Assembly: GCA_037439965.1 (NCBI GenBank)
Contig: JBBIVB010000003.1
Coordinates: forward strand, 1-48,144
From: Candidatus Veblenbacteria bacterium
GTDB lineage: Bacteria > Patescibacteriota > Patescibacteriia > Veblenbacterales > UBA10138
DNA: 48,144 nucleotides
Reading direction: 5' to 3'
In this document: one piece after another, positions 835 to 7,965 of the stretch
Position numbering within the stretch: the stretch's first letter is position 1
How the letters are laid out: each line of letters opens with the position of its first letter
The notes under the pieces: model-generated
What the model saw: the letters and a program-made list of their open reading frames with translations, nothing else
The model's database searches: none
Told to the model about the DNA's origin: nothing
Translations under genes and position numbers: made by a program

Positions 835-900
835 TTTTTTAAAGTATTTTGTTAGTTTTTATTTGTGTTTACTTTACTGCAAAAATCAAATAAAAGTCAA
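835..900 (-). promoter_or_regulatory. Sigma70-type promoter plus boxA-like motif for the pgsA-like gene
   Basis: Minus strand: TTGACT (900-895), N18, TAAAGT (876-871), then ATACTTTAAAAAA (847-835). Confidence 0.45.
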
Positions 901-2001
901 GCTAGGTTAGGAAAGCTCGTGACTAATCATGGTCTGGTAGATATTCCATTTTTTTTACCCATAGCTACCCGCGGTGTTGTTAAAGGTTTGGCGGTTAATG
1001 ATTTAAAGAGTTTAGGAGCGCAAATAATTTTATCCAACACTTATCATTTATGGCTTAAACCGGGATTGGAGTTAGTTAAAAAAGTAGGCGATTTACATAA
1101 GTTTATCGGATGGTCGGGTCCAATTTTAACTGACTCGGGTGGTTTTCAAGTTTTTAGTTTAAGTAAAATTAGGCGATTGAATGATCGAGGTGTAGAATTT
1201 TTAGTGCCGGAGAGCGGTGAAAAAAGATTTTTAACACCCAAACTTGCTTTGGAAATCCAGGCTGTTTTAGGTTCTGATATTGCTATGGTTTTAGATGAAT
1301 GCGTTGGTTATCCAGTACCGGAAGCTCGAGCAGCAGAAGCAGTGGAACGTACTAGTTTATGGGCGCAAGAGCAAATAGATTATTGGCCTAAAGTAAAAAC
1401 CTTAGGGCAGCAATTATTTGGCATTGTTCAGGGTTCGGTTTTTCCAAAACTCCGCGAGCAAAGTGCTAAAACTATTACTAAGCTTCCTTTTGATGGAATA
1501 GCTTTAGGTGGTTTGGCAGTAGGCGAAACACCAGAACAAATGTATCAAGTTTTAGATTATACCGTGCCGTTGTTGCCGGAGCATAAGTTAAGATATTTAA
1601 TGGGTGTTGGCTATCCAGAAAATATTGTGCAAGCAGTGAAAAGGGGAATAGATTGTTTTGATTGTGTGATACCAACCCGAGAAGCTAGACACGGGCGTCT
1701 TTATATTTGGCCTGAAATACGCTTTCAAGATGAAGATAAGTTTTTAAGCTTATTATCACAAGCTGATTTTTATCAAACCATTAATATTGAGCGGGCGCCA
1801 TGGCAGAATGATTTAGCTGTGCTTAACACTGGCTGTAATTGTTTGGCTTGTGCAGAATTAAAAACTACGCGGGCATATTTGCATCATTTATTTGATGTTA
1901 AAGAGGCGCTGGCTGAAAGATTAGCCACCATTCATAATTTGCATTTTTATTTAGAGTTAATGAAGCTGATCAGACGGGCCATCGAGCGAGATATTTTATA
2001 G
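865..2001 (+). CDS. tgt: tRNA-guanine(34) transglycosylase
   Basis: NTYHL, LTDSGGFQVFSL, LDEC, GIVQG, GGLAVGE, YLMGVG and FDCVIPTR motifs; Zn site CNCLAC...HN. GTG start. Confidence 0.97.
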   Translation: MFTLLQKSNKSQARLGKLVTNHGLVDIPFFLPIATRGVVKGLAVNDLKSLGAQIILSNTYHLWLKPGLELVKKVGDLHKFIGWSGPILTDSGGFQVFSLSKIRRLNDRGVEFLVPESGEKRFLTPKLALEIQAVLGSDIAMVLDECVGYPVPEARAAEAVERTSLWAQEQIDYWPKVKTLGQQLFGIVQGSVFPKLREQSAKTITKLPFDGIALGGLAVGETPEQMYQVLDYTVPLLPEHKLRYLMGVGYPENIVQAVKRGIDCFDCVIPTREARHGRLYIWPEIRFQDEDKFLSLLSQADFYQTINIERAPWQNDLAVLNTGCNCLACAELKTTRAYLHHLFDVKEALAERLATIHNLHFYLELMKLIRRAIERDIL

Positions 2002-2049
2002 ATAGATAAATATGGATTTTATTGGGGCGAGGAATTATAATAATAGTGT

Positions 2050-2400
2050 ATGAACTTCGTTCGTGAAGAAGCTACTAAAATTACCCTTAGTGTCATAGGT
2101 GATATTTGGCGTTTTCCAGGCTGGTGGTATACCCGTGGCACTAAAGAAGTAGGTAGTTGGTGTTGGCAGCAAATTCATGATACCTGGGAAAGATTAGCCA
2201 TTGCTTTATTTGTTAAATACTTTTTTAAACCGATGTATGGTGATTATACTTTGTCAGGCAGAATCATCAGTATTTTTATGAGGTTTGTTTTGATAATAGT
2301 AAAGTTAATAAGATTAGTTTTTTGGTTTTTATTTTATTCACTAATTTTTATTTTATGGCTAGTAATTTTGCCATTATCCTTAATTTTAATTTTTGTTTGA
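2050..2400 (+). CDS. Small hypothetical membrane protein upstream of the Clp ATPase
   Basis: 116 aa, Trp/aromatic-rich (FPGWWYTRG, FFKPMYGDY) with a long hydrophobic C-terminus. Confidence 0.8.
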   Translation: MNFVREEATKITLSVIGDIWRFPGWWYTRGTKEVGSWCWQQIHDTWERLAIALFVKYFFKPMYGDYTLSGRIISIFMRFVLIIVKLIRLVFWFLFYSLIFILWLVILPLSLILIFV

Positions 2401-2457
2401 AATGTCCAGTAATATAACTTTCAGTATATTTTATTGCATCTGCATCTTAAGAGATCA

Positions 2458-2514
2458 GTCATGCTGAATTTATTTCAGCATCTAGTAAAGATCCTGAATT
2501 GAGTTCAGGATGAC
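2458..2514. repeat. REP/RPE-like double-hairpin palindromic element (GTCAT...ATGAC)
   Basis: GTCATGCTGAATTTATTTCAGCATCT-agtaa-AGATCCTGAATTGAGTTCAGGATGAC: two inverted, related units, each of which is itself a hairpin. Confidence 0.8.
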
Positions 2515-2565
2515 GAAATAATAAAAATATCTTGTATTTTGAATTTTACATTTTAAATTATTTTT

Positions 2566-5115
2566 ATGCCAAGGTTGCTATGGACAATTAAACCAACTTT
2601 AAGCTCCTTATTAGTCAGGAGACTAAGGGAGAATTGGGAACGTTATATTGATGGCACAGCTTTATTTATTAGTGTGATATTATTTGTTTTGTTTTTATGG
2701 CGATTGCATGTTTATTTAGAACATTGGTCAGATATTTTAGATGCTATTTTTCCTCCTTCACCAGTAGCCAAATTTTGTTGGTTGGCAGTATTATTCATTT
2801 GTTATACTATTTATCGTTTTAACCGTTTAAACCAAGAAAGGTCCTATTTAAAAGGTGATGAGGCTATTATAAAAATTGAAGAACATTTAAGTCCTGAGAT
2901 GTGGCTATTGTTAGAGCAGGCTTGGCGTTATGCTACTAAATTTAGGCATGGAGAAGTGTCAGAAATCCATTTATTAGCCGCTTCTCTTAAAACCAGCACT
3001 GGGCAAGCAATTTTTTCTCGCTTAGGAGTTAATCCTGATAAATTATTTTCTACTCTTTCTAACGCTTTAGCCAAAGTAACTAAAGGTAGGCCAGCTCAAT
3101 TATCAAGTTCATGTCAAGCGACTTTAATTAAAACAGGTGAATTAGCTTTAGCTAGGCGCAGTCATTTAGTTGAGGTAGGAGAATTAATTATGGCTATAGC
3201 AAATGGCGAATCCTTAGCGCGCCAAGTATTAGATGAGCTAGCCATAGAAACTAAAATGATTGCCAATATCACCACTTGGTTTGCTTTACGCCGCCGTTTA
3301 AAAAAAGAATTAGCCCGCAGAGCTCGCAGAGCTTCTTGGCGCCCCAAGTACGCCTTGGATCGAGCTTATTTAGCAGTAGCTACACCCTTGCTAGATCAAA
3401 TCAGTCGCGATTTAACATATTTAGCAGCACGCGGTTATCTAAAGCCCTGTGTGGGTAGAGATAAAGAAATGCAGGAAATTTTCCGTCTGATTGAAGGTGG
3501 TAAATCTAGTGTGGTATTAGTGGGCGAGCCAGGAATTGGTAAAACCGCCATTATTGAAGGCATTGCTCAAGCCATGGTGTCTGAAGAAGTGCCAGAGCCT
3601 TTACAAGATAAAAAATTATTAGCTTTATCAGTACCAGCATTAGTTGGCAGTGGTGAAGTGGAAAGCAGAGTACTGCAAGTAATGAATGAGATAGCGCGAG
3701 CTGGTAATATCATTTTATTTATTGATGATATACACAATTTAGTTGGTCATTTAGCTAATGGCAAAGAGAGTTTAGATGTTGCTGATATGATAGCTAATTT
3801 TATCTCTGAGTCCAAAATTATTACTCTAGCTACTACTACACCAACTGATTGGCTAGATTATTTGGATAAAACTTTTTTAGGTAATGTTTTGGATAAAGTA
3901 AAAATAGAAGAACCAGAAGATGATATAGCTATACAAATATTAGAAGCTACTATACCCTTATTAGAATATCAGCATCATATTTATTTTTCTTATGACTCAT
4001 TAGCTAAGGCGGTAGAATTATCGCGGCGTTATCTGCCAGATAAATTTTTACCTGAAAAAGCCATTAAGTTATGTGAGGAAGCAGCAGTATTTATTAGACA
4101 GCATAAAGGAGAGAAGGCTACTATTACAGCCGAAGATATATCTCAATTAGTATCTAGTAAAGTAAATGTGCCAATAACCCAAGTAACTGCCATTGAGGGC
4201 GAGCGATTATTAAACTTGGAAAATATTTTACATCAGAGGATTATTGGCCAAGATGAGGCAGTTAAAATGGTATCGGCGGCTTTGCGACGGGCGCGCGTAG
4301 AATTGAAAGCTAGGAATGGTCCGATTGCTACTTTTTTGTTTTTAGGCCCTACTGGCGTTGGCAAAACAGAGCTAGCTAAGACCGTGGCGGCTGAATATTT
4401 CAATGGCGAAGATAAGATGATTAGGTTAGATATGTCTGAATTTCAAACTACCGATAGTATCTATCGTTTAATTGGCGCGCCGCCAGGTTTAGGTAAAGAG
4501 CAAGGATTTTTAACAGAGGCGGTAAGACAAAAGCCGTACTCATTGATTTTATTAGATGAATTTGAAAAATCACATCCAGATATTCTTAATGTCTTTTTGC
4601 AGTTATTTGATGATGGCCGTTTAACTGATTCTACTGGCAGGACAGTTGATTTTACCAATACTATTATTATTGCCACCTCTAATGCTGGTACACAATTTAT
4701 TCAAGATAGTTTAAAATCAGGAGTACCTATAGCTGATATTAGACGAATGCTTCTGGAAGGGGAGTTAAAAAATTATTTTAAACCAGAATTAATTAACCGT
4801 TTTGACGGAGTAATTGTTTTTGCGCCACTTGGTTTGTCAGAGGTAATAGCTATCACTAAGTTATTATTAACTAAATTAGCTCGTACCTTGCAAGCCAAAG
4901 GTATTACTTTAAAAGCTAGCGAAGCAGCGGTAGAAGAATTAGCTAGGGAAGGTTTTGATCCTTTATATGGTGCTAGGCCTTTGCAGCGTACTATTCAGGA
5001 TAAAGTTGATAATGCTTTGGCTAATTATTTATTAACCGGCAAGCTTGGTCGTCGTGATATAGTGGTGTTAGAGTCAGGTGGTGTAATTAAAGTAGAGAAA
5101 GCTACTAAACTTTAA
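2566..5115 (+). CDS. Clp/Hsp100 family AAA+ ATPase (ClpA/C-like) with N-terminal transmembrane segments
   Basis: Two hydrophobic helices, a Clp N-domain, D1 Walker [10 protein letters not shown]2 [20 protein letters not shown] and GARPLQR. Confidence 0.93.
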
Positions 5116-5119
5116 ATTT

Positions 5120-5680
5120 ATGGAACTAAGAATTGAGCGTCCACAATCTGGATATCTAGGGCAAACCACTGGAGCATTAGCTGGCTCCATTTTAGGTTTG
5201 GTTATTTTAGTAGGTGGTTTGATTTTTATTATTAAAACTGGCGCTAAAAATAATTCCAAGCCAGCTAATAATTTAGCAGAGGAGATTGTTTGGGAAGATA
5301 ATTTAAATCTTGATAAATTTAATGCTAATAATATTAAACAGACTCCTTTGTCAGATAAATTACAAATAGAAATAATTAGGTCGGGTCATGGTGATAGAGA
5401 AAGTAAATCAGGGGATAAATTAGAAGTTAATTATACAGGATGGTTGACTGATGGTACTAAATTTGATTCAAGCTATGATCGTGGAACCCCTTTTGTTTTT
5501 ACATTAGGCGCTGGAGAGGTAATTAAAGGCTGGGATCAAGGTTTACGAGGTATGGTAGTAGGAGAAAAAAGAAAACTAATTATTCCAGCCAACTTGGCTT
5601 ACGGAAAGCAGGGAAATGGAGAAATTATTCCTTCCAATGCTATTTTAATTTTTGAAGTAGAGTTGCTTAAGATAGAATAG
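5120..5680 (+). CDS. FKBP-type peptidyl-prolyl cis-trans isomerase, N-terminally membrane anchored
   Basis: [34 protein letters not shown] and LIFEVEL; one N-terminal TM helix. Confidence 0.95.
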
Positions 5681-5684
5681 TCAT

Positions 5685-6187
5685 ATGACCAAAGGTCGTT
5701 TAGTAATCTACTTAATGATTACCTTGGTAGTTTTGTTATTGGTATTTTATGTTTGGTTAGTTTATGAAGTTCAAGCGCCGCATAAAAATTTAGTCAAAGT
5801 GCAAGTGTATTTTGGCAATAGTATTAATGATCCAGAAGTTTTAGATTGTAAAAAGAATTTTTTAGTAGAGCGATGGGTAGTAAAACAGTCTAATTTAGCA
5901 GATTTAGCCAAAGTGGCTATAAATGAATTATTAGCAGGGCCAACCATAAAAGAAAAAGCAGCTGGATTTTTACTAGTATTAATCCGGGAGTAAAATTACA
6001 AAAATTAGACATAGTGGGTGAAGAAGTAAGTGTTGATTTTGATGAAACATTAGAAAAAGCAGTAGGTGGTTCTTGCCGAGTAGCAGCTATCAGGTCACAA
6101 ATTACTAAAACTTTATTACAATTTCCTAGTTTTAAAAAAGTAATAATTTCCATTAATGGACGCACTGAAGATATTTTACAACCATAA
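5685..6187 (+). pseudogene. GerMN domain surface protein, frameshifted at the T5 run 5967-5971
   Basis: The 5' ORF has ELLAGPT..EK..GF. Adding one T restores FTSINPGVKL...VDFDETLEKAVGGSCRVAAIRSQITKTLLQF...ISINGRTEDILQP*, a GerMN-type C-terminus ending at TAA 6185-6187. Confidence 0.85.
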
Positions 6188-6320
6188 TAAAGTCTGTGCG
6201 TTTAATGCCATCACCAACTACCGCGGGGACTTAGAGAGTATTTAGCAATTTATTTTTTAAACATTCTGATTTTTTAACCTAAAACCAAGAACTATTGGAT
6301 AGGAACTAATAACTTAATTT

Positions 6321-6998
6321 ATGACCAAAGGTTTTTCTATTATTTTTATTGTGATTTGTTTTTTGTTTTTTGTAGTAGTGACGGTGGTTAGTTTTTTATT
6401 GCTTCGGGAAAATTATTATGAAAGTTCTTTGGCGACGGTTATTAATCTTGAATTGAACAAAAGAGATGAGTTATTTAATTTAATTCAAATAACCACTCCA
6501 AAAGCGGATCAAGTTATAGAAAGTCCGTTGGTGATAAAAGGTAAAGCTAGAGGAAGTTGGTATTTTGAAGCATCTTTTCCAGTAAAACTTTTAGATAATC
6601 AGGGTAAGATATTAGCACAAGGCATAGCTCAGGCACAGAGTGATTGGATGACAGAAAATTTTGTGCCTTTCGTAGCTACCTTAACTTTTACTAAACCTAC
6701 TAGTACAGCAGGTACTTTGATTTTACAAAAAGATAACCCCTCAGGCTTGCCAGAACATGATGTGCAAATTAGTATCCCGTTATTATTTAAACAAGATAGT
6801 CAAGTAAATACTAAACCGTGTATTATAACCGGTTGCAGTAAACAGCTTTGTGCTGAGGATGAGGTTGTTACCACCTGTGAATTTAAACCTGAATATGTTT
6901 GTTATACCAAAGCAGTTTGTGAGCGTCAGGCAGATGGTAAATGCAGTTGGACCAAAACAATTGATTTAGAGGTTTGTTTGAATGAGTTTAAAGAATAA
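6321..6998 (+). CDS. Membrane-anchored protein with Gmad2 Ig-like domain and C-terminal cysteine-cluster domain
   Basis: N-terminal TM; SPLVIKGKARGSWYFEASFPVKL...DWMT..FVPF...KDNPSG (Gmad2); CIITGCSKQLC...TTCEF...CY..A.C....G.C.W. Confidence 0.85.
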   Translation: MTKGFSIIFIVICFLFFVVVTVVSFLLLRENYYESSLATVINLELNKRDELFNLIQITTPKADQVIESPLVIKGKARGSWYFEASFPVKLLDNQGKILAQGIAQAQSDWMTENFVPFVATLTFTKPTSTAGTLILQKDNPSGLPEHDVQISIPLLFKQDSQVNTKPCIITGCSKQLCAEDEVVTTCEFKPEYVCYTKAVCERQADGKCSWTKTIDLEVCLNEFKE

Positions 6999-7056
6999 TA
7001 AATTGTCTGGTAAAAGATACGTTTAATTTATTATTAAAAACTGGTAAACTTTAAGT

Positions 7057-7965
7057 ATGGCAGAAAATTTAGGCTATACTAAACCTTTATTTATCTTGGC
7101 TTTTGACCATCGTTCTTCTTTTATTCGTGATCTCTTGGGTTTAGAAGGCAAATTGACTAATGCTGATGTTAATAAAATCAGTGAGTTAAAATATTTAATT
7201 TACCAAGGTTTTGTTAAAACGGTAGAGAATAAATTAGTACCTAAAGATAATGCTGCGATTTTAGTAGATGAACAATTTGGAAATAAAATATTACTGGAAG
7301 CAAATATTAAAGGTTATCAAGTTTGTTTATCAGTAGAAAAAAGTGGGCAGCAGGAATTTGTTTTGGAATATAGAGACAATTTTGTAGAGCATATTAAAAA
7401 ATATGATCCAGCATTTGTTAAAGCATTAATTCGCTACAATCCAGAAGGCGATAATGAGTTAAACAGATATCAACAACAGAAATTAAAACAGCTTAGTGAT
7501 TGGTGTCGGAAAAATGATTACAAATTTTTAATTGAAACTTTAGTGCCGGCTACACCAAAACAGTTAGCTCAAGCAGGTGATATTAAAAAGTATGATGAGG
7601 AAATCCGCCCTTCCTTAGTGCTTAAAATGATTACTGAATTGCAAAACGCCGGAATAGAGCCTGATGTTTGGAAAATTGAAGGTATGATTAAACCCCAATA
7701 TTACCAAAACACTATAAAGCAGATAAAAGCAGGTGGGCGAGATAATGTTAGTTTAATCATTTTAGGTAGAGGTGAGAATCCTCAAAAGATGGAGAGATGG
7801 CTTAAGGTTGGCAAGGGAATTGATGGAGTAATAGGCTTTGCTATTGGTCGTACTATTTTTTTACCAACCTTAAAAGAATATTTAGCTAAAAAGGTTACTA
7901 GTCAGCAAGTAATAGATAAAATTGCTGACCAATATTATCATTTCTATAAAATTTTTAACTCCTAA
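7057..7965 (+). CDS. DUF2090 / class I aldolase-like protein (IolC C-terminal domain type)
   Basis: LFILAFDHR, ILVDEQFG, VEKSG, KALIRYNP, PDVWKIEG, IILGRG and GFAIGRTIF motifs. Confidence 0.85.
   Translation: MAENLGYTKPLFILAFDHRSSFIRDLLGLEGKLTNADVNKISELKYLIYQGFVKTVENKLVPKDNAAILVDEQFGNKILLEANIKGYQVCLSVEKSGQQEFVLEYRDNFVEHIKKYDPAFVKALIRYNPEGDNELNRYQQQKLKQLSDWCRKNDYKFLIETLVPATPKQLAQAGDIKKYDEEIRPSLVLKMITELQNAGIEPDVWKIEGMIKPQYYQNTIKQIKAGGRDNVSLIILGRGENPQKMERWLKVGKGIDGVIGFAIGRTIFLPTLKEYLAKKVTSQQVIDKIADQYYHFYKIFNS

Follow-up and report, generated by a model that had tools for sequence, protein, structure and literature searches.

The stretch of DNA analysed here, referred to as the window, comprises 48,144 nucleotides (nt) of a Candidatus Veblenbacteria bacterium (positions 1 to 48,144 of the forward strand of contig JBBIVB010000003.1, GenBank assembly GCA_037439965.1) and constitutes contig 3 of a genome of 801 kb that is 99.3% complete. 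Close to its start, two genes follow one another: a small gene that encodes a protein of 116 amino acids (aa), and a gene that encodes an 849-aa membrane-anchored ATPase of the Clp/Hsp100 type. This text deals with these two genes, hereafter called the pair. Although usually labelled as a Clp protease subunit, the ATPase probably does not act as one, because the first of its two AAA+ modules (D1) is dead and the tyrosines that grip the substrate are absent. Open reading frames (ORFs) were called with translation table 11; those described here are all on the plus strand, separated by short gaps, and their placement in an initial annotation, made from the DNA letters, proved correct throughout (the coordinates of the ORFs of 116, 849 and 186 aa were checked). 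The following features can be distinguished in the pair:

2050-2400, plus strand: small gene, 116 aa (ORF), with no Pfam or NCBIfam match
2401-2565, plus strand: spacer of 165 nt between the small gene and the ATPase gene, containing an imperfect palindrome
2566-5115, plus strand: whole gene of the 849-aa membrane-anchored Clp/Hsp100-type ATPase (ORF and Pfam)
2656-2820, plus strand: predicted transmembrane hairpin, residues ~31-50 and ~63-85 (hydropathy and AlphaFold2, AF2)
2866-3237, plus strand: Clp_N domain, residues 101-224 (PF02861, 27.7 bits, cut-off 20.7), with eight helices in the AF2 model
3250-3336, plus strand: long basic linker helix, family-specific, residues 229-257 (AF2), with the invariant tryptophan W238
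3388-4125, plus strand: D1, degenerate AAA+ module (alignments and motif counts)
4198-4815, plus strand: D2, catalytically intact AAA_2 module (Pfam AAA_2, 182 bits)
4834-5061, plus strand: D2-small, C-terminal domain (PF10431, 72.7 bits)

Five Pfam models score above their cut-offs on the ATPase, in the order Clp_N, AAA, AAA_lid_9, AAA_2 and ClpB_D2-small, and by this domain content the protein is assigned to class I of the Clp/Hsp100 superfamily. Two transmembrane helices ahead of the Clp N-domain, as proposed in the initial annotation, are supported by prediction: hydrophobic segments are found at residues 33-51 and 61-79 (Kyte-Doolittle hydropathy of 2.22 and 1.66, respectively), and the AF2 model (built on 71 relatives; mean predicted local distance difference test, pLDDT, of 85.6) places the helices of a hairpin at residues 12-50 and 66-91, followed by Clp_N (101-224), the linker helix (229-257), D1 and D2. 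W238 in the linker helix is invariant across 71 sequences, and at least one strong hydrophobic segment is present at the N-terminus in all 73 relatives checked. Three N-terminal architectures exist: (i) a plain hairpin, as in the window; (ii) a zinc ribbon placed before the hairpin; and (iii) a fusion to the small domain. The ribbon, of the form CxxCxGxG...CxxC, precedes the hairpin in 44 of the 73 relatives, in 26 of 88 unfused loci and in none of 28 fused ones, and gives only sub-threshold Pfam matches (Anti-TRAP and DnaJ_CXXCXGXG).

The catalytic and pore motifs were aligned with the solved ClpC proteins of S. aureus and B. subtilis and with the genome's own canonical ClpC. D1 retains an intact Walker A motif. 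Its Walker B motif reads FIDD, versus FIDE in ClpC; its pore loop (11 protein letters, not shown) lacks the tyrosine, a four-residue deletion having taken out K-Y-R; and its arginine-finger segment reads LGNVLD, versus LERRFQ in ClpC, with both arginine fingers gone. In D2, by contrast with D1, the Walker A and Walker B motifs, sensor-1, the arginine finger and sensor-2 are all intact. The D2 pore loop reads GAPPG--LG, versus GAPxGY[IV]G in ClpC, and is thus shortened and without an aromatic residue. The M-domain is absent (residue ~511 of the ATPase bridges residues 403 and 462 of ClpC, and the junction aligns without an insert), as is the ClpP-docking loop, a deletion of 7-13 residues being found where ClpC carries (I/V)GF. 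The motif states read from the sequence in the initial annotation were all borne out by the alignments.

The same pattern extends over the family, for which motifs were counted in 117 ATPases linked to the small domain (116 from the fetched loci described below, across the phylum, and that of the window). In D1, the pore tyrosine is kept in none of the 117 sequences, Walker A is canonical in 77, Walker B has DE in 29 and DD in 12, and an arginine stands at either finger position in 23. In D2, Walker A is kept in all 117, while the DE of Walker B, the asparagine of sensor-1 and the arginine finger are each kept in 116. An aromatic residue of the D2 pore is retained in seven (five Y, two F) and absent in the other 110, in 64 of which the alignment column is gapped. 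The seven sequences with GY/F-xG in D2 are those of loci L064, L066, L070, L072, L097, L098 and L109. No ClpP-type [ILVM]G[FL] loop occurs in any of the 117, nor does any aromatic residue occur in the D1 loop of the 73 best matches of a search with residues 1-470. Judging from these counts, the motif losses are traits of the family, not peculiarities of the window. In comparison with the same-genus orthologue, the ratio of nonsynonymous to synonymous substitutions (dN/dS) is ~0.11 over residues 1-497 of the ATPase, which include D1 (dS near saturation); D1 is hence constrained rather than decaying. The corresponding value for the small gene is ~0.20 (dS likewise near saturation).

The small protein, studied in alignments of 30 and of 114 sequences, has eight tryptophans among its 116 residues, the motifs FPxWWY and KPMYGDYxxxGRxIS, and a hydrophobic C-terminal helix of 44 residues. 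It is modelled by AF2 (pLDDT 97.1) as a long two-helix hairpin whose helices, residues 2-49 and 68-115, are connected by the conserved KPMYGDY...GR turn. In the 114-sequence alignment, helix 1 is amphipathic with a periodic polar face, and helix 2 is uniformly hydrophobic over its 44 residues, with a near-invariant arginine at position 78. A Foldseek comparison of the hairpin model with the PDB gave nothing better than E = 2.6, all matches in the ESM Atlas were to unnamed 'hypothetical protein' clusters, and all 120 listed database relatives are called 'hypothetical' and have no Pfam domain. Complex prediction for ATPase residues 1-275 with the small protein yielded scores of 0.22 and 0.24 (mark, 0.32), which speak neither for nor against binding.

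The two genes are tied together far beyond the window. A homologue of the small gene was found in 54 of 60 genomes of relatives, and in 29 of 30 fetched loci (that of the window included) the ATPase gene lies directly downstream of it on the same strand, the sole exception within the 1.5-kb flank being L030. Among 401 genomes sampled evenly from the Patescibacteria phylum, a profile of 30 small-domain sequences matched 120, many of the matches lying inside frames of 815-911 aa. All ten such frames checked are natural fusions with the small domain at the N-terminus of the ATPase, and in all ten unfused loci checked from other classes the small gene and the ATPase gene are adjacent. A set of 120 loci, all selected for holding the small domain, was then fetched (20 from the class of the window's genome and the 100 best remaining matches). 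The pair is fused in 29 of them and adjacent on the same strand in 89 (80 by ORF calling and nine more after a six-frame check); in the remaining two, a 457-nt gap separates the genes (L091) or no ATPase gene is present in the 1.3 kb left before the contig end (L168). Fusion or adjacency therefore holds in 118 of the 120 genomes with a small domain, and the intergenic gaps mostly range from -70 to +23 nt. The conserved linkage predicted in the initial annotation is thus strong, and it is reinforced by the natural fusions; on this genomic evidence, the product of the 116-aa gene is regarded as the true partner of the ATPase.

With a profile of 114 sequences, the small domain was detected in 233 of the 401 genomes and in 213 of the 339 of high quality (one genome, G212, counts in the denominators of the phylum tallies only). 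Searched against 1.84 billion proteins, the same profile matched 1673 cluster representatives, of which 739 reached E <= 1e-10; among the best 150 representatives, 148 are 104-238 aa long, one has 414 aa and one 880 aa. The named database relatives of the pair all belong to the Patescibacteria. A search with ATPase residues 1-470 gave 73 top matches of 661-944 aa, after which came ordinary ClpC of ~812 aa. Among the sampled genomes from the class of the window's genome, each of the 20 holding the small domain matches the D1-region profile (A4) at E <= 5e-125, and the four genomes without it reach ClpC-level scores only (E >= 1e-98). As a phylum-wide discriminator between this ATPase and ClpC, profile A4 was tried and discarded: in other classes it failed, since the scores of divergent fused members (~330-345 bits) resemble those of canonical ClpC, and the presence or absence of the ATPase as judged by A4 holds within the class only.

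With regard to the known Clp families, the NCBIfam equivalogs all remain far below their cut-offs for the ATPase: (i) ClpB (TIGR03346), the highest-scoring NCBIfam model, with 581 bits (cut-off 1232), mostly over D2; (ii) ClpA (TIGR02639), with 505 bits (cut-off 993); and (iii) ClpV (TIGR03345), with 447.7 bits (cut-off 884.95). By its defining parts, the protein is neither a ClpB nor a ClpA, ClpC or ClpE, as proposed in the initial annotation, since both the M-domain and the ClpP loop are absent. The check for canonical clpB or clpP elsewhere in the genome that had been suggested there was run. The second Hsp100 of the genome, on contig 23, is a canonical ClpC with MYR, ERRF, a short M-domain, GYIG and IGF; ClpP, DnaK and FtsH are encoded too; and ClpB was not found, as only two genes, those of the ATPase and of ClpC, exceed the AAA_2 cut-off. 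In some relatives of the same class there is a third Hsp100, ~875-895 aa long, which clusters with E. coli ClpB (e.g., G033:C3 L207, G025:C37 and G034:C9:96074-98182).

A quick IQ-TREE phylogeny was computed from 55 hand-picked rows: 22 unfused family members, nine of the 28 fused ones, 16 of the 29 ClpC loci of the candidate phyla radiation (CPR), five other ClpC, one CPR ClpB-like protein, E. coli ClpB and E. coli ClpA. The 31 family rows form one clade on a long stem, with a support of 100 in the Shimodaira-Hasegawa-like approximate likelihood ratio test (SH-aLRT), and stand apart from CPR ClpC (99), other ClpC (95) and ClpB (99), the branching order among these groups not being settled by the tree. 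The ATPase does not, then, cluster with canonical ClpC. Two basal groups contain the fused forms and a single clade (100) unites the unfused ones, which hints that the split into two genes may be the derived state.

Upstream and downstream of the pair, the window holds the following genes:

865-2001, plus strand: TGT (ORF)
5120-5680, plus strand: FKBP, 186 aa, with FKBP_C at residues 92-183 (Pfam)
5685-5993, plus strand: 102-aa ORF, N-terminal part of a GerMN gene (ORF)
6321-6998, plus strand: Gmad2 protein, 225 aa (Pfam Gmad2)

The flanking genes named in the initial annotation stand in part. FKBP_C and Gmad2 were confirmed by Pfam, and a single hydrophobic segment was found in the FKBP (residues 20-38). 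The GerMN (PF10646) gene, however, is not intact, being split by a frameshift near 5954-5993 into the N-terminal part listed above and a C-terminal part at 5954-6184 in another frame; an intact GerMN gene of 162 aa is found in a relative from the closest other genus (G005), and the frameshift could be either a real break or an assembly error. Membership of FKBP, GerMN and Gmad2 in one unit with the ATPase did not hold up: they lie downstream of it in only one of 20 same-class loci, and the block formed by FKBP, GerMN and the eight-cysteine Gmad2 protein (5120-6998) follows the ATPase only here and in G005, where the ATPase and FKBP genes are separated by one more gene, which encodes 204 aa and belongs to no known family. 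Besides the small gene, no neighbour recurs in more than 23 of the 120 loci. Three contexts can be described: (i) mraZ-mraW-119-aa gene-pair-MraY-like GT4-DUF192, in ~15 of the 120 loci, from one group of same-class genomes, these division/cell-wall-like (dcw-like) loci including L065, L069, L075, L084, L085 and L088, and the 119-aa gene belonging to no known family; (ii) Dus-pair-NusB-RNase III, in ~14 of the 120 loci; and (iii) RecO-DUF11-...-pair-GlyRS-M16, seen in the window's own class. In many same-class loci (L056-L073), a DUF11-repeat protein of 625-650 aa and then RecO lie upstream of the pair; in this window, the DUF11/RecO region would fall before the contig start.

The spacer inside the pair has its own peculiarity. 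Its palindrome (~2458-2515; fold z-score, -3.5) has similar copies on contigs C6, C2, C11, C16, C1, C22 and C23 of the same genome (e.g., C6:4092-4149 and C2:38469-38522) and, given its presence on at least seven contigs besides this one, has the appearance of a small dispersed repeat, similar to repetitive extragenic palindromes (REP) or miniature inverted-repeat transposable elements (MITE). In a same-genus relative the gap between the small gene and the ATPase gene is 4 nt, versus 165 nt here. An Rfam search of positions 1900-7100 gave no match, and a scan for promoters and terminators remained at chance level (17 found versus 14.7 expected).

Hsp100 machines are textbook threading motors. 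For the pair, a different mode of action is favoured here with moderate confidence, namely that the two genes encode a single Patescibacteria-specific membrane Hsp100 machine in which D2 is the sole motor and which carries out non-threading, ClpP-independent remodelling. This proposal builds on the anatomy of the proteins, the motif states and their family-wide pattern, the linkage and fusion of the genes, the purifying selection, and the coexistence with ClpC, ClpP, FtsH and DnaK. The pair would form one membrane-embedded Hsp100 complex, made as a single polypeptide in other lineages, with the ATPase as a hexameric ring on the cytoplasmic side, anchored both through its own transmembrane hairpin and through the hairpin subunits. 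The 116-aa protein would be an obligatory membrane subunit with the shape of a long helical hairpin. D1 would serve as a conserved, catalytically degenerate scaffold ring that binds nucleotide at most, leaving D2 as the only motor. Since both pore loops are short and without tyrosine, and neither a ClpP loop nor an M-domain is present, such a machine would neither thread substrates processively nor feed a protease nor couple to DnaK. Instead, ATP turnover in D2 would move the N-domain and the basic linker helix against the membrane module, and a membrane-associated client may thereby be remodelled, released or assembled in a manner similar to that of NSF or Torsins.

Several points weigh against this proposal. 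The hexamer, the topology, the binding of the two proteins to each other, the non-threading mode and the membrane client are all parts of it that we infer. The topology is uncertain, hydropathy giving two spans in helix 2 of the small protein where AF2 gives one continuous helix of 48 residues, and the fused forms appear with three hydrophobic segments. Clp_N is retained and many relatives have a zinc ribbon, both being features of chaperones that handle substrates. Among the seven of 117 relatives with GY/F-xG in D2, four come from the window's own class; therefore, the loss of the D2 grip was either repeated or recent and did not happen a single time at the root, and the ancestral machine may have threaded substrates, as some members perhaps still do. 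Finally, a clustering of the neighbourhoods provided no consistent functional hint, the contexts being lineage-limited and all of a housekeeping kind.

The main rival explanation is that the ATPase still threads its substrates, as an unfoldase or extractase of membrane proteins similar to Msp1 or to FtsH minus its protease, which would work with non-aromatic D2 loops and use the hairpin as a lateral gate or adaptor. The fully intact D2, the membrane anchor of the ATPase, the retained Clp_N, the DnaJ-like zinc ribbon of relatives and the seven D2 aromatics all fit such an enzyme, but the D2 aromatic is missing in 110 of the 117 sequences and the D1 tyrosine in all of them, and the residue that replaces the tyrosine is variable (L, M, V, S, T, Q or a gap), which argues against a substitute grip; this explanation is thus considered a minor, though real, contender. 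Bolder, and rather unlikely, is the idea that six hairpin subunits together with the hairpins of the ATPase form a membrane channel gated or powered by the D2 ring, that is, a translocon or an uptake/export device restricted to the Patescibacteria, comparable to PTEX HSP101-EXP2 and Bcs1. It draws on the amphipathic helix 1 with its polar face next to the long hydrophobic helix 2, on a pairing or fusion that appears obligatory, and on the exclusively patescibacterial distribution of the named family matches. The hairpin, nevertheless, has no structural match and no cargo genes are linked to the pair in the 120 neighbourhoods. If such a doubtful channel existed, its cargo might be protein or lipid, carried across the membrane of these host-scavenging cells or extracted from it.

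Two other explanations carry far less weight. In the initial annotation, it was proposed that the ATPase, together with FKBP and GerMN/Gmad2, assembles or disassembles a surface structure, as ClpV does for the type VI secretion system (T6SS). In this window, the genes are indeed co-directional with short gaps and all their products have predicted membrane anchors; the rarity of that gene order within the class (one in 20 loci), the frameshift in GerMN and the low score of the ClpV equivalog, however, render the proposal highly improbable. No T6SS genes occur among the scanned neighbours, a whole-genome T6SS search not having been made. Even less credible is a decaying, non-functional ClpC paralogue: D1 and both pore loops have lost many canonical motifs, but the D2 catalytic motifs are near-invariant in 117 sequences, dN/dS is ~0.1-0.2, the reading frame is intact, the AF2 model is confident and the family is present in 233 of the 401 sampled genomes.

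The pair appears to be new to the literature, in so far as no published description of it was found in a full-text search, beyond whose reach most subscription journals lie. The main text of a transposon sequencing (Tn-seq) paper on Saccharibacteria (PMC10633639) contains no mention of Clp, AAA or chaperone. In any case, what emerges is a large and widely kept Hsp100 branch with one dead ring, no gripping tyrosines, no coupling to a protease or to Hsp70, and an integral-membrane partner without a known fold. This challenges the default annotation of these genes as 'ATP-dependent Clp protease ATP-binding subunit'. The pair is, moreover, a core unit of the reduced-genome Patescibacteria. Under the favoured remodelling proposal, the pair would be the bacterial counterpart of the Torsin problem, i.e., a Clp relative without pore loops that works at a membrane; were the channel true, it would represent a new ATP-powered translocon or extractor with a housekeeping role in over half of the Patescibacteria sampled. 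Because of its small size, its conservation and its occasional fusion, the pair lends itself to direct tests of how such a Clp relative works at a membrane.

Among known systems, ClpC (6em8, 3j3t, 9rai) is the nearest in structure. Its domains Clp_N, D1, D2 and D2-small follow one another as in the ATPase, and it is both the best PDB sequence match (E = 2.5e-138) and the best fold match (E = 8.8e-61) of the ATPase, for whose model ClpC and ClpB are the nearest solved folds; D2 is ~45% identical to that of the genome's own ClpC. Unlike ClpC, the ATPase has an N-terminal transmembrane hairpin, a small membrane partner and a clade of its own, while it lacks the M-domain, the (I/V)GF loop, the pore-loop tyrosines and the D1 catalytic residues. 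The absence of the ClpP loop is shared with ClpB/Hsp104. But, unlike these disaggregases, the ATPase has neither the long M-domain coiled coil that couples to DnaK nor pore tyrosines, its D1 is degenerate, and it is predicted to be membrane-embedded. It also differs from ClpA, ClpC and ClpE in not having two catalytically competent AAA+ rings. The division of labour proposed here, with one ring as scaffold and the other as motor, is familiar from two-ring AAA+ proteins of the NSF, Pex1/Pex6 and p97 type in which one ring is inactive; these, however, belong to another AAA+ clade, have aromatic pore loops in their active rings and are not integral membrane proteins. As regards function, the closest precedent, by analogy and not by family relationship, may be found in the Torsins, which one source (PMC5425593) describes as Clp/Hsp100-related, membrane-associated AAA+ proteins that lack aromatic pore loops and rely on a membrane cofactor. 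Torsins, which act with LAP1/LULL1 in the eukaryotic endoplasmic reticulum (ER) and nuclear envelope, share with the ATPase described here the membrane association, the absent aromatic loops and the membrane partner. But while a Torsin is a single AAA+ module of the ER lumen without an arginine finger of its own, the ATPase has two modules, with the D2 arginine finger kept in 116 of the 117 sequences; and the Torsin partner has a degenerate AAA+ fold, whereas the partner here is predicted to be a helical hairpin.

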